DNA from: a virus
Taxonomy: Duplodnaviria; Caudoviricetes
DNA length: 53,608 nt
Strand: one strand, 5' to 3'
Virus record (IMG/VR): IMGVR_UViG_3300025646_000055
Location: 1 to 53,608 of that record
The notes beneath the pieces were generated by a model. The model worked only from the letters and a program-made list of their open reading frames with translations. It had not been told where the DNA came from and did no database searches. Position 1 is the stretch's first letter, and each line of letters opens with the position of its first letter. Below are positions 581 through 17,693 of the stretch, piece by piece. The position numbers and the translations under genes are program-made.

Positions 581-1381
581 ATGTTAAATTATCAAGCAAC
601 AGAGTTTAAAACCAACAGTGAAATTAGAACAATGGCCCCATCAGTATTTACTGATAAGCCTTCAAGTAATGTTTCTCAACACTATACCCACATTCCTACC
701 TCACGTGTAATTGAGGATATGAGGTCATTAGGATGGGATGTTGTTGATGCTAAGGAAGTTAAAGCAAGGAAAGGTCAGGGTACCCAAAAACACCTAGTAA
801 TATTCAGAAACCCAAATGTGGTTATTGATGGTGAGGATGGAGATACAGTATGGCCTCAGATTTTGCTTACCAATTCACATGATGGTAAGAATGCATTCCA
901 ATTCCAAGCTGGTTTGTTCCGTTTGGTTTGTGAGAATGGATTGGTTATTTCAACTCAAGATTTTGAGAAAGTAAAGATGCGTCACATGGGTTACACATTT
1001 GAGGAATTGCAAGAGCAAATCCGTTTCATGGTTGCTCGCCTACCTTTAACTGTTGAGTCAATGAATAAGATGAAGCAGATAGAATTGAATGAGGATCAAA
1101 TGGTAGAATTTGCTAACCGTGCCTTACAAACCCGCTTCAATGAAGAGGAAATGAACCGTATCCAAATTGATGTAAACCAATTACTGGAAGCAGACCGAAA
1201 CGAGGATAAAGGCAATGATGTATGGGTGGTATTTAATCGTATCCAGGAAAAATTATTAAACGGTGGATTCAATTATACCTCAGGTAATAAAACCCGTAAA
1301 GCCCGTAAAATCAAGAATTTCCAACAAGATACTAAAGTAAATGCTGAATTGTTTAATTTGGCACTTGAATATGTTGGTTAG
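581..1381 (+). CDS. DUF932/DUF945-family protein
   Basis: Family motif LLTNSHDG...FQAGLFRLVCENGLV. Confidence 0.85.
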   Translation: MLNYQATEFKTNSEIRTMAPSVFTDKPSSNVSQHYTHIPTSRVIEDMRSLGWDVVDAKEVKARKGQGTQKHLVIFRNPNVVIDGEDGDTVWPQILLTNSHDGKNAFQFQAGLFRLVCENGLVISTQDFEKVKMRHMGYTFEELQEQIRFMVARLPLTVESMNKMKQIELNEDQMVEFANRALQTRFNEEEMNRIQIDVNQLLEADRNEDKGNDVWVVFNRIQEKLLNGGFNYTSGNKTRKARKIKNFQQDTKVNAELFNLALEYVG

Positions 1382-7906: not shown

Positions 7907-8155
7907 ATGGATATAGAAGTTTTAGCGGATAAATACGAAGAATTAGAAAATCTAAAAAATCAAATAAACCAAGAAGAAATGGAAAAAGAAAATTTAATTA
8001 ATGAATTAGTTTTTTTAACTCAAAAACGTGATGAATTATGGGAATACCATCCAAACAATCCTGAGGGGAAAAACTTAATTAAAGTTGTAAAAGAATTAAG
8101 TGAACGAATTGATCAAATAAATGATCAATTAATTAAAAAAGAAAGTCAAAAATAA
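7907..8155 (+). CDS. coiled-coil hypothetical protein
   Basis: ORF within an operon. Confidence 0.7.
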   Translation: MDIEVLADKYEELENLKNQINQEEMEKENLINELVFLTQKRDELWEYHPNNPEGKNLIKVVKELSERIDQINDQLIKKESQK

Positions 8156-8156
8156 T

Positions 8157-8187
8157 TTGGATATTAGTTAACTTTTTTGTATATTCA
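8157..8187 (+). promoter_or_regulatory. promoter heading the RNA island
   Basis: TTGG-N19-TATATTCA. Confidence 0.7.
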
Positions 8188-8214
8188 CATATGTATAATT
8201 AAATAAATTAAAAG

Positions 8215-8366: not shown

Positions 8367-8396
8367 AAACCCGGTCCTAAAAAACCGGGTTTTTTT
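8367..8396 (+). terminator. intrinsic terminator / attenuator
   Basis: AAACCCGGT/ACCGGGTTT stem plus T-run. Confidence 0.8.
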
Positions 8397-8413
8397 GTTC
8401 TTTAATATAAAAT

Positions 8414-8487
8414 CTAGATGCGATCCATTGGTGTGGTTACCTCACTTGGACTGAGGGTTATTGAGAGTTCGAGTCTCTCCATCTAGA
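8414..8487 (+). tRNA. tRNA-Pro(TGG), atypical D arm
   Basis: CTAGATG/CATCTAG; CCTCA-CTTGGAC-TGAGG. Confidence 0.7.
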
Positions 8488-8492
8488 CATAT

Positions 8493-8565
8493 GCCTTCGT
8501 AGCTCAGTTGGTAGAGCTCCTGATTTGTAATCAGATGGTCATCGGTTCGAATCCGGTCGAAGGCT
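8493..8565 (+). tRNA. tRNA-Thr(TGT)
   Basis: Cloverleaf, loop TTTGTAA. Confidence 0.92.
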
Positions 8566-8600
8566 CAAATGTTGAGTCATATCAACGTCATACCAGATAT

Positions 8601-8631
8601 TTGGTTATATAAATATATATTCGTATATTTA
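8601..8631 (+). promoter_or_regulatory. sigma-A-type promoter, followed by boxA-like GTTCCTTGACAT (8668-8679)
   Basis: TTGG-N19-TATATTTA. Confidence 0.75.
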
Positions 8632-8693
8632 CCAAGTTGAAAAATGATAAGATAATTCAACAAAAAAGTTCCTTGACATCTTGAAAAACCTGA

Positions 8694-8780
8694 GGAGGCG
8701 TGGCAGAGTGGTCGATTGCACCGGTCTTGAAAACCGGAGGTCGCGAAAGCGGCCCGTAGGTTCGAATCCTACCGCCTCCG
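8694..8780 (+). tRNA. tRNA-Ser(TGA)
   Basis: Cloverleaf with long variable arm, loop CTTGAAA, G73. Confidence 0.95.
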
Positions 8781-8786
8781 CAATGA

Positions 8787-8879
8787 AATGAATGTGCCGA
8801 CATAATGGCGGTATTGGTGCAACTCCAATTAGTCAGTGAAAAAACGAGCCACAAGTAGTTCAAACCTACCACATTCATT
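8787..8879 (+). ncRNA. tRNA-like RNA with extended acceptor stem and 4-bp T stem
   Basis: AATGAATGTG/CACATTCATT; ATTGG-TGCAACT-CCAAT; GTAG-TTCAAAC-CTAC. Confidence 0.5.
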
Positions 8880-8885
8880 AATTAT

Positions 8886-8959
8886 TGTCCTGTCGTATAA
8901 TGGGAGTACATCTGATTTTGGTTCAGAGAATGGAGGTTCGAATCCTTCCGGGACAACCA
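8886..8959 (+). tRNA. tRNA-Gln(TTG), CCA encoded
   Basis: Cloverleaf, loop TTTTGGT. Confidence 0.92.
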
Positions 8960-8961
8960 AT

Positions 8962-9055
8962 TCTTAAACTGATGGAGCCCGAAAGGGAACGTAGAAGCGG
9001 TAGGATAAATTTGCAAAGAGGCCTACAACGTTTGCAACTCAAATTTGGTTTAAGA
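8962..9055 (+). ncRNA. unassigned structured RNA with probable pseudoknot
   Basis: Closing TCTTAAACT/GGTTTAAGA; CCC-GAAA-GGG; GTAGG/CCTAC pairs into the loop of the TTGCAAA/TTTGCAA hairpin. Confidence 0.5.
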
Positions 9056-9259
9056 CTTCTAAAAGTTACTTGTAACGATAGAAACCCGCGAGATGAGTTC
9101 ATCTCTCCTAACTCTCACTTAATTGTGATTAAAACACGCGAGATAATGGTTAGGATTTCAGAACTCCGTTACATTTAACCAGGCTAGACTGATTAACTGC
9201 AGTAAAGGTTTAGAATGATGCCCTCGGATGCTGCCGCACCTATGGGTAGTTTTAGAAGT
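9055..9259 (+). ncRNA. unassigned ~205-nt multibranch RNA
   Basis: ACTTCTAAAA/TTTTAGAAGT closing helix; TGTAACG/CGTTACA; TCCTAACT/GGTTAGGA. Confidence 0.5.
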
Positions 9260-9268
9260 AAAATATAT

Positions 9269-9344
9269 TGCGATGGCGGTACAGAGACGTTCTCATGAGA
9301 CGTATTGGGTAGCTCCCCTCCGAGGTTCGATTCCTCAATCGCAA
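9269..9344 (+). tRNA. aberrant tRNA(CAT): reduced D arm, long variable arm
   Basis: TGCGAT/ATCGCA; ACGTT-CTCATGA-GACGT; GAGG-TTCGATT-CCTC. Confidence 0.55.
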
Positions 9345-9374
9345 CAAATCTTGCAAGACTAGGTTGATAACCTT

Positions 9375-9444
9375 GTATAAGTCGTCTAAATATGTAGGAC
9401 ACCGGCGGGGTCGGAGATTTGGGTTCGAGTCCCATTCTTATACA
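9375..9444 (+). ncRNA. tRNA-like RNA with collapsed anticodon loop
   Basis: GTATAAG/CTTATAC; D and T arms present; CCGGC-GGG-GTCGG. Confidence 0.6.
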
Positions 9445-9458
9445 AAACAATCAAATTT

Positions 9459-9531
9459 GACTTCGTAGCTTAGCAGGTAGAGCACTCCGCTTTTAACGGA
9501 GGGGTCGTGAGTTCGAGTCTCACCGGGGTCA
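9459..9531 (+). tRNA. tRNA-Lys(TTT)
   Basis: Cloverleaf, loop CTTTTAA. Confidence 0.93.
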
Positions 9532-9648
9532 CAAGCTGTTCTGCATCAGAAGTGCTGGTTAGTGAAACACCTAATCGATGAGCCCATCAAAATGTGAGTG
9601 GTTTTTTACTGTGGCGGTTTCCACTCAAATTAAAAACACAGCCCACCT

Positions 9649-9731
9649 GCCCGAGTGTTGGAATTGGTAGACAAAGCGGTCTTAGAAACCGTGGCCTTAA
9701 TGGCTTGAGAGTTCGAGTCTCTCCTTGGGTA
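9649..9731 (+). tRNA. tRNA-Leu(TAG)
   Basis: Cloverleaf with variable arm, loop CTTAGAA. Confidence 0.93.
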
Positions 9732-9831
9732 CAATTGTTAAAGCAGTTATAGTAAAGAACACGTGATAACTTTACTATAAGCGGTACATATGTAAAAGAA
9801 AACTGCTGGATGTGCCGAACAGTTAGAATTT

Positions 9832-9919
9832 AGTCAGGTGGCGTAATTGGTAACGTAGGTGGTTCAATTCCACAATACCCATGGTTAGAGTGTTACAGGT
9901 TCGAATCCTGTCCTGACTA
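9832..9919 (+). ncRNA. AGTCAGG family copy 3 (possible Leu-CAA)
   Basis: Same acceptor and T arm; GTGG-TTCAATT-CCAC gives a CAA anticodon in a 4-bp stem. Confidence 0.7.
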
Positions 9920-9999
9920 CCTAGCCTTTGTTTGGGGCAAGCGCTCGTACACGTTGCGGGCAAGTCAATACTAAACACACACAGCTGGGAAGACAGCGG

Positions 10000-10108
10000 A
10001 GTCAGGTGGTGGAATTGGCAGACACAAACCCTTTAAGGCGCCAGGGGTTGTAACAGATGAGTTCTCATCCAATAGTGCAGATTACAGGTTCGAATCCTGT
10101 CCTGACTA
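10000..10108 (+). ncRNA. AGTCAGG family copy 4
   Basis: Same acceptor and T arm; enlarged anticodon and variable arms. Confidence 0.75.
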
Positions 10109-10114
10109 CAAAAT

Positions 10115-10262
10115 GTTGGTATCCAAGTGGGTGAAGTAGGGGATATACATTTAAATAAAACACGAACGGTGAAAATATGGAATCGGCCGATAAACATAGA
10201 AGTAACAACGAAGCCCGTGACACCAAGTAGATGCCTCCACGTGGCGGTGTTGGATAACCAAC
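10115..10262 (+). ncRNA. unassigned ~150-nt RNA
   Basis: GTTGGTATCCAA/TTGGATAACCAAC closing helix. Confidence 0.45.
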
Positions 10263-10280
10263 CAAATCTACGATTAAAAT

Positions 10281-10377
10281 AGTCAGGTGGCGGAATTGGT
10301 AGACGCTTTTAGGGATTAACTCACCAGAGGGTTGTATCTGTTATGGATACGTACAGGTTCAAATCCTGTCCTGACTA
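10281..10377 (+). ncRNA. AGTCAGG family copy 5
   Basis: Same acceptor, D and T arms; irregular anticodon arm; GTATC/GATAC variable arm. Confidence 0.75.
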
Positions 10378-10381
10378 CAAT

Positions 10382-10456
10382 GCACCTTTAGCTCAGTTGG
10401 TTCAGAGCGTTACCCTTACAAGGTAGATGTCGGTGGTTCGAATCCATCAAGGTGCA
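10382..10456 (+). tRNA. tRNA-Val(TAC)
   Basis: Cloverleaf, loop CTTACAA. Confidence 0.93.
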
Positions 10457-10467
10457 CAATTTATTCA

Positions 10468-10537
10468 ACCTTTAGTCGAAGTGGCTTAAGACAATCGGCG
10501 GGAGCCGATAAAACATGGGTTCGAATCCCATAAGGTA
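10468..10537 (+). ncRNA. tRNA-like RNA with a GNRA tetraloop in place of the anticodon loop
   Basis: ATCGGC-GGGA-GCCGAT; ATGGG-TTCGAAT-CCCAT; short acceptor ACCTT/AAGGT. Confidence 0.6.
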
Positions 10538-10607
10538 AAAAGCACAACCTGTTTCCGGTTAATGTGAAATAGAATAAAGGTAAAACAACCAGAGTCGACG
10601 CTGGTTG

Positions 10608-10706
10608 GACCGAGTGGTGAAATTGGTAAACACAAAGGGTGCAGAGCCCTTGGAAGTGGAATGACGTCTGAAGCTTCTGTTGTAGGTTCGAGTCCTACCT
10701 TGGTCA
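10608..10706 (+). tRNA. atypical tRNA-Leu(CAG): G33, very long variable arm
   Basis: GACCGAG/CTTGGTC; AAGGG-TGCAGAG-CCCTT. Confidence 0.6.
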
Positions 10707-10713
10707 CTATTAT

Positions 10714-10796
10714 TGGAGTGTTGAGCAATTGGTTGGCTCGGCAGACTGTAAATCTGTTGCCTTACGGCCTTGGGGGTTCGAGTCCCTCCGCTCCAA
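10714..10796 (+). tRNA. tRNA-Tyr(GTA)
   Basis: Cloverleaf, loop CTGTAAA. Confidence 0.92.
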
Positions 10797-10845
10797 CAAA
10801 TCTTAGGAGTAATTAACCTAAGACTGACAGGTTCGAAACTGTCGA

Positions 10846-10942
10846 TTGATAGTAGTGTAGTGGGCACACTGCTCCCGGGGCGCTCGGTAAAATGAGGCTG
10901 TCCAGGAGCGGGGGTAAAGAGGTTCGAATCCTCCCATATCAA
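10846..10942 (+). ncRNA. tRNA-like RNA with ~45-nt extended anticodon arm
   Basis: TTGATA/TATCAA; GTGT/ACAC D stem; GCTCC...GGAGC long arm; GAGG-TTCGAAT-CCTC. Confidence 0.55.
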
Positions 10943-11110
10943 CTAAGGCTTTAGTCTATCCGAGACGCTAGTAAGGTTGGAGGATAAAGGTGGACGGCAA
11001 TCCACACACTTTTGAATTTGATACACTAGAAGTAGACTCGCCTCTTTGCCGAGAGGTGTTAAAAAATGGTTTCGTGGGCGAGTTTCCATCACAAAAAGCC
11101 GGCCCACCAT

Positions 11111-11184
11111 ACATTGGTAGCTCAATTGGATAGAGCACTTCACTACGGATGAAGGGGTTGAGGGTTCGAGTCCTTCCCAATGTA
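11111..11184 (+). tRNA. tRNA-Arg(ACG)
   Basis: Cloverleaf, loop CTACGGA. Confidence 0.93.
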
Positions 11185-11188
11185 CAAA

Positions 11189-11292
11189 GTTCTATTTGGT
11201 GTAATTAGGCAACACTTCGGTTCGAATCCGAATGCTTTATACAATAAAGTAACAGAGAGGTTGGATGTGGGTTCGAGTCCCACAATAGAACG
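11189..11292 (+). tRNA. atypical tRNA-Ser(CGA)-like with oversized variable region
   Basis: GTTCTATT/AATAGAAC; TTCGG-TTCGAAT-CCGAA. Confidence 0.55.
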
Positions 11293-11297
11293 AGTTT

Positions 11298-11370
11298 GGT
11301 ACTGTAGCTCAGTTGGTAGAGCACCTGATTGAAGCTCAGGGTGTCAGCAGTTCGAATCTGTTCAGTACCA
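11298..11370 (+). tRNA. tRNA-Phe(GAA)
   Basis: Cloverleaf, loop TTGAAGC. Confidence 0.92.
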
Positions 11371-11377
11371 CTTTTAT

Positions 11378-11450
11378 ACATCTATGGTGTTAACGGTTAG
11401 CATGATGGTCTCCAAAACCAGAGGTAAGGGTTCGAATCCTTTTAGATGTG
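11378..11450 (+). tRNA. tRNA-Trp(CCA)
   Basis: Cloverleaf, loop CTCCAAA. Confidence 0.9.
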
Positions 11451-11456
11451 CAATAT

Positions 11457-11528
11457 TCCCCTTTAGCTCAGCGGTAGAGCAGAGAGCTGTTAACTCTAAG
11501 GTCGTTGGTTCGAATCCAGCAAGGGGAG
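11457..11528 (+). tRNA. tRNA-Asn(GTT)
   Basis: Cloverleaf, loop CTGTTAA. Confidence 0.93.
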
Positions 11529-11530
11529 CA

Positions 11531-11612
11531 AATACTTTTGGAAAAGTTGGCACTAGCACCACAGTTGCAAATGTAGGACTAGGTGTAGGTTCGAATCCTA
11601 CTATGAAGTGTT
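11531..11612 (+). pseudogene. degenerate tRNA-like remnant
   Basis: Intact T arm GTAGG-TTCGAAT-CCTAC; poor acceptor and D arms. Confidence 0.4.
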
Positions 11613-11672
11613 TACCACCGAGATGCTGCCGAGCTGAGGAGGTGGTTAAGAAATATCCCTAAATACGGACCA

Positions 11673-11746
11673 CGGTGTGTGGCCAAGATGGTTAAGGCAC
11701 CTCGCTGATAACGAGGAAATCGGAGGTTCAAATCCTCCCTCACCGA
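11673..11746 (+). tRNA. tRNA-Ile(GAT)
   Basis: Cloverleaf, loop CTGATAA. Confidence 0.9.
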
Positions 11747-11779
11747 CTCGTGTAAGAGCACTGTGCTCTAACATAACCT

Positions 11780-11853
11780 GGCGAGGTAGCTCAGTTGGTT
11801 AGAGCGTTGGAGTCATAACCCAAAGGTCATAGGTTCGATTCCTATTCTCGCTA
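11780..11853 (+). tRNA. tRNA-Met(CAT), elongator type
   Basis: GGCGAGG/TCTCGCT; loop GTCATAA. Confidence 0.85.
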
Positions 11854-11865
11854 CAAATAACTTTC

Positions 11866-12045
11866 CGCGACATGGAGAAGTGGGCAAGTTTTGATTTAAG
11901 TAATCAGAGTACTTTGGTTTCTTAAGAAAGGATTAGATTTTAAATGGTGGTGGAGTACTACACCTAATGGAAGTTACTAATCTTAGAAACGTATCTCGCC
12001 GGGGGCATGACCCGGAGATCGTAGGTTCGAATCCTACTGTCGCAA
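11866..12045 (+). tRNA. initiator-type tRNA-fMet(CAT) with ~108-nt D-loop insertion
   Basis: C1:A72 mismatch; CCGGG/CCCGG anticodon stem; loop GGCATGA; D stem GAGA/TCTC split by insert ~11884-11991. Confidence 0.75.
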
Positions 12046-12047
12046 CT

Positions 12048-12264
12048 AAAAGAACAACCTATCGCTCTACGGAGAGGAAACTCAGGACGGCACTGCTTAA
12101 GGTAGGAGATTCAAATTATAGGACCTGGATGTTGCCTATAATCCCTGAATCTCTTATACTACCGAGGCCGCAACACAAAACAGTCTATAAGGGTGAGCAG
12201 CTTGGATAAGGTAGTGGCAACAAGGTAAATGATAGGATAAACAGAATCCTGGTTATGTTCTTTT
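12048..12264 (+). ncRNA. rnpB: compact RNase P RNA-like gene
   Basis: P1 AAAAGAACA/TGTTCTTTT; P2 CCTATC/GATAGG; CR-I GAGGAAACTCAGGA; CR-V ACAGAATCCTGGTTA; CR-II/III-like GCAACACAAAAC and GGGTGAG. Confidence 0.8.
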
Positions 12265-12270
12265 AAATAT

Positions 12271-12346
12271 GGTGTCTGTAGTGTTAGTGGAATAAGCACG
12301 TCAGTTTGTGGTTCTGATAGGATGAGTTCGAATCTCATCAGACACA
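12271..12346 (+). tRNA. tRNA-His(GTG), G-1 encoded, A73
   Basis: Cloverleaf, loop TTGTGGT. Confidence 0.88.
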
Positions 12347-12351
12347 CTAAG

Positions 12352-12471
12352 AAGAGGCAGTTCAAGCTGTAGTTGAGAGGTAGAGTGTATTAATGTCTGA
12401 AAAAGGGTTTATAGTAGGATGGCGTCACTCATTGCACTCAACCAGAAACCCTGCAACACACGGAGCCTCTT
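12352..12471 (+). ncRNA. unassigned pseudoknotted RNA
   Basis: AAGAGGC/GCCTCTT closing helix; interleaved GTTGAG/CTCAAC and AGGGTTT/AAACCCT. Confidence 0.5.
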
Positions 12472-12480
12472 TTTTTTTAT

Positions 12481-12551
12481 GGTTCTTTGACCGAGTGGTT
12501 AGGTGAAGGTCTGCAAAACCTTTTACATTGGTTCGAATCCAATAAGAACCT
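12481..12551 (+). tRNA. tRNA-Cys(GCA)
   Basis: Cloverleaf, loop CTGCAAA, U73. Confidence 0.93.
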
Positions 12552-12564
12552 CAATTATTAATTT

Positions 12565-12648
12565 GGAGAGTAACCCTTGATGGTGATAGGGCTTGCCTGC
12601 TAAGCAATGTGTACATTCGTGTATATGGTTCGAATCCATTGCTCTCCG
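12565..12648 (+). tRNA. tRNA-Ser(GCT)
   Basis: Cloverleaf with variable arm, loop CTGCTAA. Confidence 0.88.
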
Positions 12649-12664
12649 CTAAAAAGGATAAGTC

Positions 12665-13120
12665 ATGAAAATATTTAAACGAGTTAACGGACAAAAGGTT
12701 ACGGATATTGTTGAATATACAATTGATATTATCCGTAAAGACCCATATGTAGAAATACATATAGGAACAGATTCTCAAAGTGAAGGTGAATGGACAACTT
12801 ATGTTACAGCTATTGCATATAGATTTGGTACAAGAGGTGTTCATTATATTTACCACAAAGAACGAGTTCCAAGAATACGTGATAGATACACTAAACTATT
12901 TAAAGAAGCTGAATTAACAATTGAATTAGCTGAATGGTTTACTAAGCGTGTTAAGAGTGTAAGAATAGAATTAGATTTTGATTACAATAAAGATGAAAGA
13001 TATTGGTCTCAAAAATTAATTAGTTCTACAGTAGGTTGGGCACAGGCTTTAGGATACAAAGTTAATGTGAAACCAGTTAAACAAATTGCTACAAGAGCAG
13101 CAGATTATCATTGTAGATAA
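12665..13120 (+). CDS. RNase H-like YkuK/DUF458-family protein
   Basis: IHIGTDSQ...L.KEAELT...IELDFD...KP...ATRAAD. Confidence 0.8.
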   Translation: MKIFKRVNGQKVTDIVEYTIDIIRKDPYVEIHIGTDSQSEGEWTTYVTAIAYRFGTRGVHYIYHKERVPRIRDRYTKLFKEAELTIELAEWFTKRVKSVRIELDFDYNKDERYWSQKLISSTVGWAQALGYKVNVKPVKQIATRAADYHCR

Positions 13121-13132
13121 TTTAAAAAAAAC

Positions 13133-13163
13133 TTGGATATTTAAGATATTGTTCGTATATTTA
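13133..13163 (+). promoter_or_regulatory. sigma-A-type promoter; boxA-like GTTCTTTGAAAT at 13311-13322
   Basis: TTGG-N19-TATATTTA. Confidence 0.75.
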
Positions 13164-13169
13164 CATATA

Positions 13170-13301
13170 ATGAAAAACAAAGAAAAAACTAAAGAAAAAA
13201 AAGAAGATTTTGGATATTTTGATAGGTATAAAAATCAAAATAACCCCAAAACTAAAAAAGAAACATTAGAAATTAGTTTATTTTCTAGATATAAAGATTA
13301 A
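13170..13301 (+). CDS. small Lys-rich peptide (43 aa)
   Basis: ATG a few nt after the promoter core; ends in a CTAGATA/TATCTAG hairpin. Confidence 0.45.
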   Translation: MKNKEKTKEKKEDFGYFDRYKNQNNPKTKKETLEISLFSRYKD

Positions 13302-13337
13302 TTTATCTAGGTTCTTTGAAATCTTGAAAAAACCAAT

Positions 13338-13410
13338 GCTTCCATGGTGTAACGGATGAGCACAAGGCCCTTCTAAGGCTTTAGTTTAGGTTCGAATCCT
13401 AATGGAAGTA
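13338..13410 (+). tRNA. tRNA-Arg(TCT)
   Basis: Cloverleaf, loop CTTCTAA. Confidence 0.92.
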
Positions 13411-13562
13411 CAGCTGTTATCTGAACTAGCACTAGGACGATAACTACCATCAGAGGAAGCTAGTCTCATGGATGGTCCTGTGGGTTGTGACCAGTACACA
13501 TAAAAAGACTCCCACCAAATAGAGTAGGTGACTGCGTTTTTGCATAAAGCTCTATTATTTAT

Positions 13563-13636
13563 CGCCCGTTCGTCTAGCGGTCTAGGACATCGCCCTTTCA
13601 CGGCGAAGATCACGAGTTCGAATCTCGTACGGGTGA
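13563..13636 (+). tRNA. tRNA-Glu(TTC)
   Basis: Cloverleaf, loop CTTTCAC. Confidence 0.93.
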
Positions 13637-13645
13637 CTATAACAT

Positions 13646-13733
13646 AGCAAGGATGAAGGCTGGTGGTGATGCCTCAGTAGTCTCATAAGCTACTACCTCA
13701 ATGAGGGTGCGGGTTCGATTCCCGCCCATGCAA
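13646..13733 (+). tRNA. atypical tRNA(CAT) with long D and variable arms
   Basis: AGTAGT-CTCATAA-GCTACT; CCTC/GAGG variable arm; mismatched acceptor. Confidence 0.6.
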
Positions 13734-13738
13734 CTAAT

Positions 13739-13823
13739 GCACTTGTGGTGAAATTGGTAGACACGCGGGACTTAAAATCCCGTCTCTATTGCAGAGGTGC
13801 CAGTTCGAGTCTGGCCAGGTGCA
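13739..13823 (+). tRNA. tRNA-Leu(TAA)
   Basis: Cloverleaf, loop CTTAAAA. Confidence 0.93.
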
Positions 13824-13831
13824 CATATATT

Positions 13832-13904
13832 GGTCCTATGGTTGAATGGCTACAATGCCACCCTGTCACGGTGCGCGGTACGGGTTCGAATCCCGTTAGG
13901 ACCG
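13832..13904 (+). tRNA. tRNA-Asp(GTC)
   Basis: Cloverleaf, loop CTGTCAC. Confidence 0.9.
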
Positions 13905-14033
13905 CAACTTAATACCGAATCGCGTTAAAGGTGAAGTAGATAACGTGTGGTGAGTTTGGAAGGTCTCACATAAAACAAAACCAAAACCTTAAGTCTACCA
14001 CGAAGAGGTGTTATCGGTGACCTCTTCATTTAT

Positions 14034-14107
14034 GGGCTGGAATGTTCCAAGGCTGGCGAATCTCCCTTGCACGGAGATTGTGGTGAGTTCGATTCTCACC
14101 TGGTCCA
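14034..14107 (+). tRNA. tRNA-Ala(TGC)
   Basis: G3:U70, loop CTTGCAC. Confidence 0.85.
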
Positions 14108-14200
14108 CATAAAAGTTGCGCAGTACGCGATTGACCGGAGTGTTTGAGACGTCCTTCCTCCAAGGCATCGATGGGTAACCAATCCCTTCCACTTTTATAC

Positions 14201-14272
14201 GCGGATGTAGTATAGTGGCTATTATGCCTGATTTCCAATCAGGAGATGTGAGTTCGATTCTCTCTATCCGCT
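14201..14272 (+). tRNA. tRNA-Gly(TCC)
   Basis: Cloverleaf, loop TTTCCAA, U73. Confidence 0.9.
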
Positions 14273-14277
14273 CAAAA

Positions 14278-14350
14278 GCGAGATTAGCTCATTTGGTAGA
14301 GCGTCTGCTTGCCAAGCAGAAGGTGGTCGGTTCGAATCCGATATCTCGCT
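14278..14350 (+). tRNA. tRNA-Gly(GCC)
   Basis: Cloverleaf, loop TTGCCAA. Confidence 0.93.
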
Positions 14351-14352
14351 CA

Positions 14353-14457
14353 AAAAGGTAATAAACTCAAAACCGAGCGATGCTTTAAAAAAGATTCACA
14401 ACTTTAGAGGTCGTTGAGTTGGGTGGTAGTAAATGTGAATACCACCTATTACCTTTT
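14353..14457 (+). ncRNA. unassigned three-way-junction RNA with loop-loop complementarity
   Basis: AAAAGGTAATA/TATTACCTTTT closing helix; ATTCACA/TGTGAAT kissing loops. Confidence 0.55.
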
Positions 14458-14463
14458 ATTTAT

Positions 14464-14542
14464 AGGGTAGTAGAGGAGTCAGGTTTATCTCGCTACATTT
14501 GGGATGTAGAGCACGCTGGTTCGAATCCAGTTTACCCTACCA
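14464..14542 (+). tRNA. tRNA-Pro(TGG), CCA encoded
   Basis: Cloverleaf, loop TTTGGGA. Confidence 0.9.
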
Positions 14543-14621
14543 TAGTATGGTCTAACAAATGCCTGTGCCAGAATGTCGACCAAAATGCAGGGATATGTAG
14601 GTAATGACTTACCATTTCACA

Positions 14622-14695
14622 GGTCCTTTAGCTCAGATGGTTAGAGCAACTGACTCATAATCAGTAGGTCGTAGGTTCAAATCCTACAAGGACCA
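14622..14695 (+). tRNA. tRNA(CAT), probably Ile2 (lysidine type)
   Basis: GGTCCTT acceptor; ACTGA-CTCATAA-TCAGT. Confidence 0.85.
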
Positions 14696-14725
14696 CTAAA
14701 AAATTAAAGGTTTTTTCAAGATAAT

Positions 14726-14794
14726 TTGGATGTTTGAAATTTTGTTTGTATATTTATGTATAATAAAGATTTAAAACAAAACGTTCTTTAACAT
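14726..14794 (+). promoter_or_regulatory. promoter (14726-14756) plus boxA-like CGTTCTTTAACAT (14782-14794)
   Basis: Motif match; directly upstream of the large RNA. Confidence 0.75.
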
Positions 14795-14804
14795 ATTAAA
14801 AAAT

Positions 14805-15750
14805 TTAGGGTTGCTTGAAATCCTTTCAGATTATTATTGACGCGTAACAGTCCGGCTGACGATTATGTAATAGTTTGATAAAGAGTAATGAGCCGTAAGG
14901 CTACGAAAGGGGATAGTCTCACACTACCTCGCTTGGCAACAAGTTCATTCAAGCAAGCAACGTTCTAAGCTCTACCTAAGAGCGCTGTCGGACCAACCGG
15001 CAGATAAGGAGAAAGTTAGTGGAATAAGTCCCTTAGGAAAGGATAAAACCAGAGCCGATCGGTGAGGTTAAAATGGGTAGCTCCATGCTTATCCATGCTA
15101 AACTAACAAAACCTGAACAGAATAAGTTGTAGAATATGAGTTTGAGTCTCGCTAAGACAAAGGCAAGTATTCATTATAAGAGGTGAAAGGGTAATATATA
15201 TAACTCCCGGAGTAATCTTGAAGTAAGGCACAGTAGGATTAGCAGTCCGAAACGCAGTTGGCGTGTCATATTTTGTAGCTCAAAAGGTTATGAAGTGACT
15301 GTTGGGGCACGTCAAAGTGAGTTAAATAACTTGTAAGTTAGCTCAGTTGGTAGAGCATCTGTCTCTTAAACAGAATGTCGAAGGTTCAACTCCTTCACTT
15401 ACTATATGAATAATATAGAATAAAAAACGCAAAGCCCCCAACGATAGTGAAAAACAAATCACCTAATTCCGTACTCAAAAGAGAATACGGAGCTTTCAAA
15501 ACTCGCAAGGTAGAGAAAGTTTGATTGGATTTCGCACCTAATTTCTTAGCGGAAATGAATGGCTCGCAAGGTCAGGGGAAGAAAAAAAATCGAGTAGTTT
15601 CACTATGACATGAGAAATGCCACTCATTAAAAAAGGCGGTGATGTTGCTAGACTTCCTTGGTGGGAGTGGATAAGTTTTTAACAAGTAGGTTTGCCCCTA
15701 TTTGGTACGAAAATGAAGGTAGTAATATATAACGTATAATCTCAGCGTTT
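14805..15750 (+). ncRNA. large (~950 nt) structured ncRNA, GOLLD-like; ends approximate
   Basis: No ORF in the track; higher GC than flanks; many GNRA hairpins; CCACTC/GAGTGG long-range pair; ends TAATCTCAGCG + T-run; adjacent to a tRNA array. Confidence 0.7.
15332..15404 (+). tRNA. tRNA-Lys(CTT) nested in the large ncRNA
   Basis: TCTGT-CTCTTAA-ACAGA; canonical D and T arms. Confidence 0.88.
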
Positions 15751-15841
15751 TTTTTAATTATTCTTCTATAAAACCATTTATACTCAATTTCCTACGAGTT
15801 ATATTTGGTTTATTTTTTTTTCTCTAGTTATATTTATAGCT

Positions 15842-16282
15842 ATGGATTTAAATAAATTTTTTAGCCACTTTATAGACAACCCTTCATCTACTTCTAAAGA
15901 TGAATTAATTACATCTTATTCAGATTTTTACAATAATCCTATTTTTAAATTAGGTATGTTTAAAAAACTAGTGTTTAATCACGTAAATTTCAATAAAAAA
16001 ATGTTATTTTCTTTATTAGACAGTGTCTCCGGTGAGAATGATAAAGAATCGCTGAAAATAAAAGAAATTAGCGAGATTATGATATATAATAAAGCATATT
16101 CTCATTTAGAAGAAGTTGATTTGAAAGCTGAAGATAATCAAAATTATATAAGACAAGCCTCAGATGAAGAACTTTTAACAGCTTGTAAATTAGCAATTAG
16201 GTTTTTTGAGGAAAGAGAGGAATATGAAAAATGTGCTAAAATTAAAATTTTAGAAGACTTAGTAACTTCTTTTATAAAATAG
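15842..16282 (+). CDS. hypothetical protein with C-terminal UVR-like motif
   Basis: AIRFFEEREEYEKCAKIK. Confidence 0.7.
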   Translation: MDLNKFFSHFIDNPSSTSKDELITSYSDFYNNPIFKLGMFKKLVFNHVNFNKKMLFSLLDSVSGENDKESLKIKEISEIMIYNKAYSHLEEVDLKAEDNQNYIRQASDEELLTACKLAIRFFEEREEYEKCAKIKILEDLVTSFIK

Positions 16283-16408
16283 TTTGGCCTCCCAGATTTC
16301 TCTTGATATCTTATTATTACAGGGAAAATAAGAAACATATAAATAAATAGGGGTAATGAGGGGGGAAGAATAACCCGGGGTACCACGATATTAAATAAAC
16401 TAATTATT

Positions 16409-16606
16409 ATGAGACAAAGAGACATTATTATTAACAGGATTGAAATGTTAGAAGCAAGGTTTAAAACCTTAGAATTTATAGTAAGGAGAGGATCTCCTGT
16501 AGAAGAATTTTATAGTACACTTAATCAATCAACCGAAATTTTAAGTAACATTAAAGATATGATAGAAAGAGAAGAACATTCTCCATCAGAAATTAACAAA
16601 CAATAG
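16409..16606 (+). CDS. small hypothetical protein
   Basis: ORF at the head of an operon. Confidence 0.7.
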   Translation: MRQRDIIINRIEMLEARFKTLEFIVRRGSPVEEFYSTLNQSTEILSNIKDMIEREEHSPSEINKQ

Positions 16607-16620
16607 ATTAAATATAAGTT

Positions 16621-17415
16621 ATGAGTTTAACAGCAGAACAAATCCAATTAAATTGGAATACTTTAATGGATGATATTAAAAATCATATCTCATCCCCACG
16701 CAAAGAAAAACTTTTAGAATTTTATGAAAAATATGCTGAGCGTATTATGCTTATGCCTGCTTCGCATAAAAAGGAATACCATAATGCTTTTCCTGGAGGT
16801 TATGTAGATCATGTTTTACGAGTTATAAGATGTGCTGTTAAACAATCCAGATTATGGGAAAGTGAGGGAGCAGATATGTCTACTTTTACAAAAGAAGAAT
16901 TAATATTCTCAGCATTAAATCATGATTTAGGTAAAATTGGAGATGAAGAACATGAATCTTATATCCCTCAAACTGATACTTGGAGAAAAGAAAAACTTGG
17001 AGAAGATTATACTCACAATACCCAGATTCCATTTGCCTCAGTTCCAGATAGAGGACTTTATTTACTCCAATCACATGGTATCCCTTATACATTTAATGAA
17101 ATGTTAGCTATTCAGACTCATGATGGTTTATATGATGATGCTAATAAAAAATACCTTATGGGGTATATGCCAGAACAAAAACCACGTACTTCTCTTCCTT
17201 TTATTATACATCAAGCAGATTTAATGGCAGCTCGTATTGAATTTGAAAAAGAATGGTTGCCTAAATTAAAAAAAGAAAAGAAAAACTTGGAGAATAGTAA
17301 AAAGAATTTTACGTTAGGTGGGAATAAGACAGAAAAAAAATCTATACCTACTAAATCTAAAGCTTTAAGTTCAATTAAAAGTGAAGGATTAAAAAACATG
17401 TTAGATAATTTATGA
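16621..17415 (+). CDS. HD-domain phosphohydrolase (YhaM-like HD)
   Basis: PAS...YHNAFPGG..DHV...HDLGK...HDG...HQAD. Confidence 0.88.
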   Translation: MSLTAEQIQLNWNTLMDDIKNHISSPRKEKLLEFYEKYAERIMLMPASHKKEYHNAFPGGYVDHVLRVIRCAVKQSRLWESEGADMSTFTKEELIFSALNHDLGKIGDEEHESYIPQTDTWRKEKLGEDYTHNTQIPFASVPDRGLYLLQSHGIPYTFNEMLAIQTHDGLYDDANKKYLMGYMPEQKPRTSLPFIIHQADLMAARIEFEKEWLPKLKKEKKNLENSKKNFTLGGNKTEKKSIPTKSKALSSIKSEGLKNMLDNL

Positions 17416-17693
17416 TATTAGAAGTAATTATTTCAATATTAGTTATTTTGGTCGTAATCTTAGGGTATACGACCTTTAACTTACTACGCAAGAATGAAAA
17501 ACAAGAAGATATTTTATCTTCTTATATGCAATATCTATCTAGAATAGATACTGCTATAAAAGAATCAGATAAAAGAATTAAAGAAATTGATGAAAGAGGA
17601 TCTTTTAAATCTGATGATGAAATTGGTTGGTTCTTTCTTGAAATTAAAAAAATTCAAATGATATTAAATGAATTTACTATAAAGGAATATTAA
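17412..17693 (+). CDS. membrane-anchored coiled-coil protein
   Basis: N-terminal TM helix. Confidence 0.7.
   Translation: MILEVIISILVILVVILGYTTFNLLRKNEKQEDILSSYMQYLSRIDTAIKESDKRIKEIDERGSFKSDDEIGWFFLEIKKIQMILNEFTIKEY

Follow-up and report, generated by a model that had tools for sequence, protein, structure and literature searches.

Whether a tRNA that lies inside a giant phage RNA is a product, a cargo or a bait is the question raised by the locus described here. GOLLD RNAs have solved cage structures and no known function, and nothing but the embedded tRNA hints at a cargo. The GOLLDs solved by cryo-EM are those of env-38 (14-mer cage, 833 nt) and Streptococcus agalactiae (12-mer, 700 nt) (PMC12990946; 10.1101/2024.12.08.627333). 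In the 14-mer cage described by Kretsch et al. (10.1101/2024.12.08.627333), an unresolved linker points toward the interior, and phage tRNAs are stated to occur sometimes in this linker. A Mycolicibacterium GOLLD carries tRNA-Phe in the linker J13/15 (PMC12990946, citing Morgado 2020), and the same paper proposes "inhibited storage". A pseudo-tRNA, whose expression was reported as not detected, lies inside the GOLLD of Mycobacterium aubagnense (PMC6582537). As these three reports describe it, a tRNA in the GOLLD linker is therefore already published and not new. The present locus, which lies in a window of 53,608 nucleotides (the whole stretch of DNA that was analyzed), adds a GOLLD with a linker tRNA-Lys to this published layout.

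Genomic context of the locus

The 53.6-kb window comes from an IMG/VR viral record whose completeness is estimated at approximately 33%. ARAGORN detected 29 tRNA genes in it; they occupy 8414-15405, share the plus strand, and together cover all 20 amino acids. Of these, 28 are located directly upstream of the nested tRNA-Lys. Tail and baseplate genes follow downstream of the GOLLD locus. The baseplate wedge protein shows 45.7% amino acid identity over its full length with its counterpart in Flavobacterium phage immuto (160-kb genome), and nearly all of the sequencing runs containing the GOLLD stretch are freshwater or lake metagenomes. The baseplate similarity and the freshwater runs indicate a large AT-rich, myovirus-like phage of fresh water. 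This uncultured phage has a genome of approximately 160 kb and a Flavobacterium phage as its nearest cultured relative, and we infer that its host belongs to the Bacteroidota. The placement in a viral record and next to tRNA genes agrees with the known context of GOLLD RNA.

The absence of an ORF over approximately 950 nt, which had been noted initially, was borne out by an ORF list: 40 ORFs of at least 25 amino acids overlap 14000-17500, and the longest within 14805-15750 encodes 42 amino acids (15103..15231, minus strand). Elsewhere in the window, Rfam tRNA matches at 37-161, 412-505, 10000-10108, and 10608-10706 are 94-125 nt long, far over the normal tRNA length, and have no ARAGORN call; possibly, these are tRNAs enlarged by inserts or introns.

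Assignment to the GOLLD family

The initial annotation had named the GOLLD family on the basis of size, context, and the 3' motif. In a scan of the whole window, the Rfam GOLLD model RF02032 matched 15258-15748 on the plus strand with 162.8 bits (E 6.4e-44), above its gathering score of 150 bits, and the match spans model positions 1-416 of 416 without truncation. ROOL, the other family for which a scan had been proposed, gave no match at the Rfam gathering score, nor at E up to 1 on 14690-15800. The permissive scan of the latter region (E up to 1) yielded, besides GOLLD, only the tRNA and two chance-level matches. The GOLLD score is just 13 bits over the cut-off, and loci without a tRNA score 250-340 bits. 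The locus is almost certainly a member of the GOLLD family. It resembles ROOL in being a large phage-associated RNA of a cage-forming kind near a tRNA island, as described by Kretsch et al., but differs from it by the lack of the ROOL match.

For comparison, 80 viral loci were fetched by a pattern made from two invariant 3' motifs. A GOLLD match above the cut-off was found in 76 of them, the four others being L011, L057, L068, and L077. The alignment A1 contains 67 distinct GOLLD sequences and the window, i.e. 68 sequences. The GNRA hairpins noted initially were all present (GCC-GTAA-GGC at 14892-14901, and CTC-GCAA-GG at 15502-15510 and 15563-15571), and the two GCAA loops align with conserved CGCAAgg loops of the Rfam model. 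An exact 22-mer scan found one further locus, L239, a near-identical copy from another sample, which over 14804-15800 differs by 1 substitution and an additional T and has the same GOLLD and tRNA scores; being near-identical, L239 confirms the sequence but is of no use for covariation. BLASTN of 14700-15800 against 50,697 phage records returned only tRNA-Lys/Asn look-alikes (6% of the query); GOLLD relatives were absent from the matches. The GOLLD model gave no match on Flavobacterium phage immuto, a result for which the tool warns that absence is not thereby shown. A search of viral contigs with the pattern CTGTTGGGGCACNTC gave at least 118 stretches; BLASTN showed no resemblance to the window for any of the 80 stretches that were fetched, and these matches were discarded as chance matches. 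The features of the locus are listed in Table 1.

Table 1. Features of the GOLLD locus (positions in the window)
Feature	Position	Strand	Remarks
Promoter-like element (TTGGATGTTTGAAA ... GTATATTTATGTATAAT)	14712..14765	+	One of four tRNA-island copies
boxA-like element GTTCTTTAACA	14783..14793	+	~20 nt downstream of promoter-like element; NusB/NusE binding putative
Leader, boxA to conserved 5' domain	14794..14869	+	RNA-library contigs start at 14817 in two runs and at 14823 in one
GOLLD 5' domain, outside Rfam model	about 14870..15257	+	Aligns with 13 other GOLLD loci
P13 5' strand (TTGGCGTG)	15258..15265	+	Start of Rfam GOLLD match
P14 hairpin, conserved A-rich loop TCAAAAG (15280-15286)	15266..15299	+	Rfam alignment; loop conserved in A1
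P15 5' strand GTTGGGG	15301..15307	+	Columns 49-55, partner columns 202-208
P13 3' strand (CACGTCAA)	15308..15315	+	Rfam match and A1 pairing
Linker J13/15, 120 nt	15316..15435	+	A1 columns 64-201
tRNA-Lys, anticodon CTT 15365-15367	15332..15404	+	U1.U72 mismatch, A73, no encoded CCA
P15 3' strand CCCCAAC	15436..15442	+	A1 pairing
GOLLD 3' domain	15443..15748	+	RF02032 to position 416; invariant GTGGATAA and TAATCTCAGC motifs present
T8 run	15749..15756	+	Candidate transcript end

A pseudoknot closes the linker that holds the tRNA

The tRNA had been described as enclosed by a GTTGGGG/CCCCAAC helix. This helix is real and family-wide: among the 68 distinct GOLLDs, the P15 columns are 99.4% paired and 7/7 pairs change on both sides, values that were reached in 0/500 shuffles, and sliding the partner columns lowered the pairing to 29-52%. 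It is not, however, the plain hairpin that had been assumed, but the P15 arm of a pseudoknot. P13 (columns 3-10 and 56-63 of the 68 sequences) is 93.2% paired, with 6/8 pairs changing on both sides, and the window itself has the complete P15 (7 pairs) and 8 pairs in P13. The elements, whose names (P13, P14, P15, and J13/15) follow PMC12990946, are arranged in the order P13 5' strand, P14 hairpin, P15 5' strand, P13 3' strand, linker, and P15 3' strand. Since the P15 5' strand lies inside the hairpin closed by P13, between P14 and the P13 3' strand, the structure is an H-type pseudoknot with the tRNA in its long loop. A single-sequence fold, in which pseudoknots cannot be drawn, also formed the GTTGGGG/CCCCAAC helix around the arms of the tRNA. 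According to Kretsch et al. (10.1101/2024.12.08.627333), L14 makes an A-minor bridge in the GOLLD cage.

The linkers of the 68 sequences are 35-126 nt long. That of the window (120 nt) is the second longest of all and the longest among the tRNA-bearing members sampled; in it, the tRNA is preceded by a 16-nt leader and followed by a 31-nt trailer, which contains a small AT hairpin and a conserved GCAAAG. The insert holding the tRNA falls in a variable region of the GOLLD model.

The 5' domain and the boundaries of the RNA

The Rfam model represents only the 3' part of GOLLD, and 14838-15257 was aligned with the equivalent upstream regions of 13 loci. RNAalifold predicted 32 consensus pairs; in 23 of these, both partners change and pairing is retained, among them the pairs of the GNRA hairpin at 14892-14901, and a local MAFFT alignment agreed. 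As judged by this sequence comparison, the alignment demonstrates homology of the 5' domain with the 5' domains of other GOLLDs. When the 41 upstream regions of the largest subgroup (A) were combined into a sequence profile, the profile matched only the promoter/boxA leader block of the window (E 3.8e-5) and not its 5' domain.

An own promoter had been proposed for the RNA. A promoter-like element, TTGGAT..GTATATTTA..TATAAT at 14712-14765, is repeated within the phage and conserved upstream of GOLLD in L005 and L036, and would serve as this putative promoter. Its copies are located at 8143-8192, 8601-8632, 13119-13168, and 14712-14761 (direct-repeat families D14, D18, and D19), which suggests that the promoter-like repeat punctuates the tRNA island and gives rise to several stable-RNA transcription units. 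The block and the sequence following it show 78-83% identity over 87-101 nt with the corresponding regions of L005 and L036. A sigma-70 scan did not list the element and listed TTGACG-18-GATTAT at 14837-14866 instead; in the combined sigma-70 and terminator scan, the number of sites was no higher than in shuffled sequences, and the T8 end was also missed.

The boxA-like site reported initially was found at 14783-14793, where GTTCTTTAACA matches GYTCTTTAANA at 11/11 positions, this being the published gamma-proteobacterial boxA consensus, which may not be that of the host (10.1101/091223). The window contains 2 perfect matches against approximately 1 expected, and at least 2 occurred in 28/100 shuffles, so that the count is not significant. 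Of 68 loci (the window and 67 others, after 9 of 77 had been removed because they were duplicates or had less than 700 nt upstream), 33 have the core GTTCTTTRA in sense orientation 405-522 nt ahead of the Rfam match, and none has it on the antisense strand. The motif is absent from the 8 other members of the window's own GOLLD clade. Because the loci are related, the motif is missing in the own clade, and the count in the window is not significant, a boxA-type leader should be regarded as common before GOLLD but not universal. The locus resembles the boxA-bearing leader of rRNA operons (10.1101/091223) in the full 11/11 match, the promoter-like element approximately 20 nt upstream, and the long structured untranslated RNA downstream, and differs from it in that half of the GOLLD loci are without the motif. 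In the literature searched, there was no paper linking GOLLD with boxA. The window's second perfect boxA match (8397-8407) shares positions with the T-run of a terminator-like hairpin-plus-T site (8369-8407), which lies 7 nt ahead of the tRNA that opens the island.

At the 3' end, the T-run noted initially corresponds to T8 at 15749-15756, directly after the last GOLLD model position, and is the probable transcript end. A T-run (at least 5 T within 15 nt of the 3' end) was present in 18 of 68 distinct loci; the terminator scan did not call the T8 run a terminator. At the 5' side, contigs from RNA libraries start at 14817 (X10 record 4 and X11 record 8) and 14823 (X12 record 17). These starts are a weak hint of the 5' end of the RNA, and as starts of contigs they cannot prove it. 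The plus-strand region from approximately 14770 or 14817 to 15756 encodes a full-length GOLLD RNA of approximately 940-990 nt.

Contigs of the locus in metatranscriptomes

Contigs matching the window were found in four freshwater metatranscriptome runs, which belong to four 2017 studies, possibly of one campaign. They cover 14823-15360 (538 nt, 8 differences), 14861-15360, 15032-15360, 15246-15360 (no differences), 14817-15045, and 14817-14967. A 92%-identical variant contig covers 15243-15419 and thus spans the whole tRNA, and contigs of approximately 90% variants cover 15422-15574, with unaligned upstream letters that resemble the 3' end of a tRNA. In the four runs, there was no cover at the promoter region 14696-14793 and none at the downstream ORF 15676-15950. 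The cover of the GOLLD body and the uncovered flanks indicate that the body is present in RNA libraries and the flanks are not, and that the tRNA is joined to the body; the records are assembled contigs, from which ends, strand, and abundance are not readable and for which DNA carry-over is possible. The uncovered parts 14696-14816 and 15578-15756 were considered as transcript ends and rejected, since contig cover cannot show ends.

All contigs of the window's own sequence that reach the tRNA stop at 15360, where they contain 29 tRNA letters, fewer than the 31 of the bridging rule. These breaks are probably due to D-arm words common to other tRNAs, including tRNAs of other organisms; the loose ends at this position lead into other tRNAs. 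Mature tRNAs are poorly captured by such libraries, and therefore an efficient release of the tRNA could escape notice.

The variant GOLLD of 92% identity (run X11, record 13) has changes at 15363, 15365, and 15367 that convert the anticodon CTT to GTG. Other metatranscriptome variants have small indels at 15363 and 15368.

The nested tRNA-Lys and its relatives

The tRNA-Lys(CTT) is nested as had been described: the Rfam tRNA model matched 15332-15404 with 69.8 bits, and ARAGORN placed the tRNA at 15331-15405 with anticodon ctt. Its score equals those of the best free-standing tRNAs in the window, and its cloverleaf is normal. Lysine identity depends on an anticodon with U35 and on A73, and both are found in the nested tRNA. 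An encoded CCA, which it lacks, is mostly missing from the other tRNAs of the island too.

A tRNA inside the GOLLD match was found by Rfam, in agreement with ARAGORN, in 8 of the 76 other viral loci (L015, L016, L021, L030, L032, L052, L076, and L078). Their anticodons are Lys-TTT, Arg-TCT (3 loci), Gln-TTG, CTA, and GCT, and one tRNA has an 8-nt anticodon loop; CTT occurs in 0/8. The leaders of these tRNAs are 5-9 nt long, compared with 16 nt in the window. In ARAGORN structures, the top of the acceptor stem has 1-2 unpaired positions in 8/8 distinct nested tRNAs versus 18 of 119 distinct free-standing tRNAs (15%) from the same 81 sources, many of the 18 being tRNA-Met(CAT). The nested set shares ancestry, and hence the eight mismatched acceptor ends are not independent. 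With only U1.U72, the tRNA-Lys of the window is the most regular of the eight distinct nested tRNAs. The nested tRNA of L030 (979-1051) has the amber-reading anticodon CTA, and that of L032 (1625-1696, minus strand) is the one with the 8-nt anticodon loop. L052 (982-1052), L076 (1624-1694, minus strand), and L032 have one tRNA body and anticodon stem in common, and their loops differ (TCT, GCT, and TTCA, respectively).

In a neighbour-joining tree of the non-linker columns (identity distances, midpoint root, no support values), the tRNA-bearing sequences and the window form one clade, together with the tRNA-less L029. This clade adjoins a sister clade that has tRNA-sized AT-rich linkers in which no tRNA was called. 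The tree, which is weak evidence, suggests that a single old tRNA insertion may have been followed by identity switching and decay. The AT-rich linkers of the sister clade (L003, L009, L014, L018, L019, L022, L031, L035, L045, L047, L058, L060, L066, L071, and L079) are 93-126 nt long, about the size of a tRNA with flanks. ARAGORN at a relaxed threshold found 0 tRNAs in 17 long AT-rich linkers. That the linkers of the sister clade are decayed tRNAs is a guess.

Fate of the nested tRNA

The GOLLD of the window is like those of env-38 and S. agalactiae in its full match to the 3' model, the P13-P14-P15 pseudoknot, the conserved L14, the homologous 5' domain, and the phage tRNA island. It is unlike them (833 and 700 nt, respectively) in its length of approximately 940-990 nt and its low score of 162.8 bits. 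With the Mycolicibacterium and M. aubagnense GOLLDs it shares a tRNA in the same linker and a position within a tRNA array; it differs from them in the identity of the tRNA, Lys(CUU), and in belonging to a freshwater virus resembling Flavobacterium phages.

The explanation of the locus toward which we lean, taken as a whole, is a full-length GOLLD whose tRNA stays tethered in the cage. Transcription would start from one of the copies of the promoter-like element that is repeated in the phage, and the boxA-type leader would recruit the NusB/S10 antitermination machinery of the host, as in rRNA operons, so that this long untranslated RNA is synthesized to its end. Like the homologous env-38 and S. 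agalactiae GOLLDs, the RNA would then assemble into a closed homo-oligomeric cage with the linkers directed inward; that the RNA of the window forms such a cage is likely on this analogy. One tRNA per chain would hang inside the cage. Most molecules would keep it covalently attached, and the assembled cage would shelter it from RNase P and RNase Z, so that the tRNA would be a tethered cargo or a stored spare and not a routinely excised product. For this last point, that the tRNA is mostly retained, we put the chances at about even. The initial supposition that excision could cut the large RNA follows from the topology: removal of the tRNA would break GOLLD at the junction of its two domains, which would then be held together only by the 7-bp P15 and tertiary contacts. 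The mismatched acceptor ends of the nested tRNAs fit poor or delayed processing. Among the papers searched, none analyzed RNase P processing of a GOLLD-embedded tRNA.

Alternatively, an ordinary phage tRNA gene may have come to lie in a tolerant loop, with a tRNA that RNase P and RNase Z excise efficiently, that receives CCA, and that decodes AAG; GOLLD would then work as two non-covalently held halves, or the uncut fraction alone would matter. The score of 69.8 bits, the normal cloverleaf, A73, and the lysine identity features are as expected of such a gene, and so is the lack of CCA, which most other tRNAs of the island do not encode either. The 16-nt leader and 31-nt trailer give processing enzymes more room than the 5-9-nt leaders of the other nested tRNAs. 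The tRNA is the sole Lys-CTT in a set of 29 tRNAs covering 20 amino acids and the phage's only reader specific for AAG. However, AAG is rare, accounting for 107 of 1037 Lys codons in 41 ORFs, and the set contains no C34 isoacceptor for Glu, Gln, or Arg, which argues against a general need for readers of G-ending codons. The U1.U72 mismatch, in a group of tRNAs with irregular acceptor ends throughout, the joined forms in the RNA libraries, and the closed cage interior that the linker faces in the structures of Kretsch et al. also speak against routine excision, and we regard this alternative as possible but rather unlikely.

A third explanation is that the tRNA-shaped body is a structural or decoy element that is never charged and possibly serves, inside the cage or on it, as bait for the host's tRNA-cleaving defence nucleases or for other tRNA-binding proteins. 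Known anticodon nucleases attack the Lys, Arg, and Gln classes of tRNA, and these are identities found among the nested tRNAs. Mismatches in the acceptor ends of 8/8 nested tRNAs would also be in line with a body that is not charged, as would the related tRNAs that keep one body and vary the anticodon loop (L052, L076, L032, and the X11 variant at 15363, 15365, and 15367) and the tRNA-sized AT-rich linkers without a tRNA call in the sister clade. However, the tRNA of the window is more canonical than all others of the nested set, no gene for defence or counter-defence was recognized near the GOLLD locus, where few functions could be named among the neighbouring genes, and the explanation is drawn from pattern alone; we consider it improbable. 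A broader speculation, which we think improbable, is that GOLLD tRNAs were never meant for release: a ring of tethered bodies in the cage, with deliberately frayed acceptors and fast-changing anticodon loops, would act as a protected reserve or as bait for host defences that cleave tRNAs in the anticodon loop. If this were true, it would be the first concrete function of GOLLD, and its boxA leader would identify it as a product of rRNA-type transcription machinery.

The details added here are the boxA-like leader in 33/68 loci, the mismatched acceptors (8/8 nested versus 18/119 free-standing tRNAs), and the contigs running from the 5' domain into the tRNA in four libraries. The boxA-type leader, the frayed acceptors, and the differences in the anticodon loop between close relatives are relevant to the choice between product, cargo, and bait. 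Between the tethered tRNA that we favor and its alternatives, the locus offers a clean test case, with a near-canonical tRNA-Lys(CUU), a long leader and trailer, a linker-closing pseudoknot, a probable promoter and end, and a joined form in RNA libraries.

Other RNA genes were observed beside GOLLD in the comparison set. In 8 of 76 loci (L002, L012, L044, L049, L062, L063, L067, and L080), the strand opposite to GOLLD carries a tmRNA gene no more than a few hundred bases away, and in L028 a pistol ribozyme (837-912, minus strand; 69.4 bits) lies approximately 360 nt upstream of GOLLD on the same strand.
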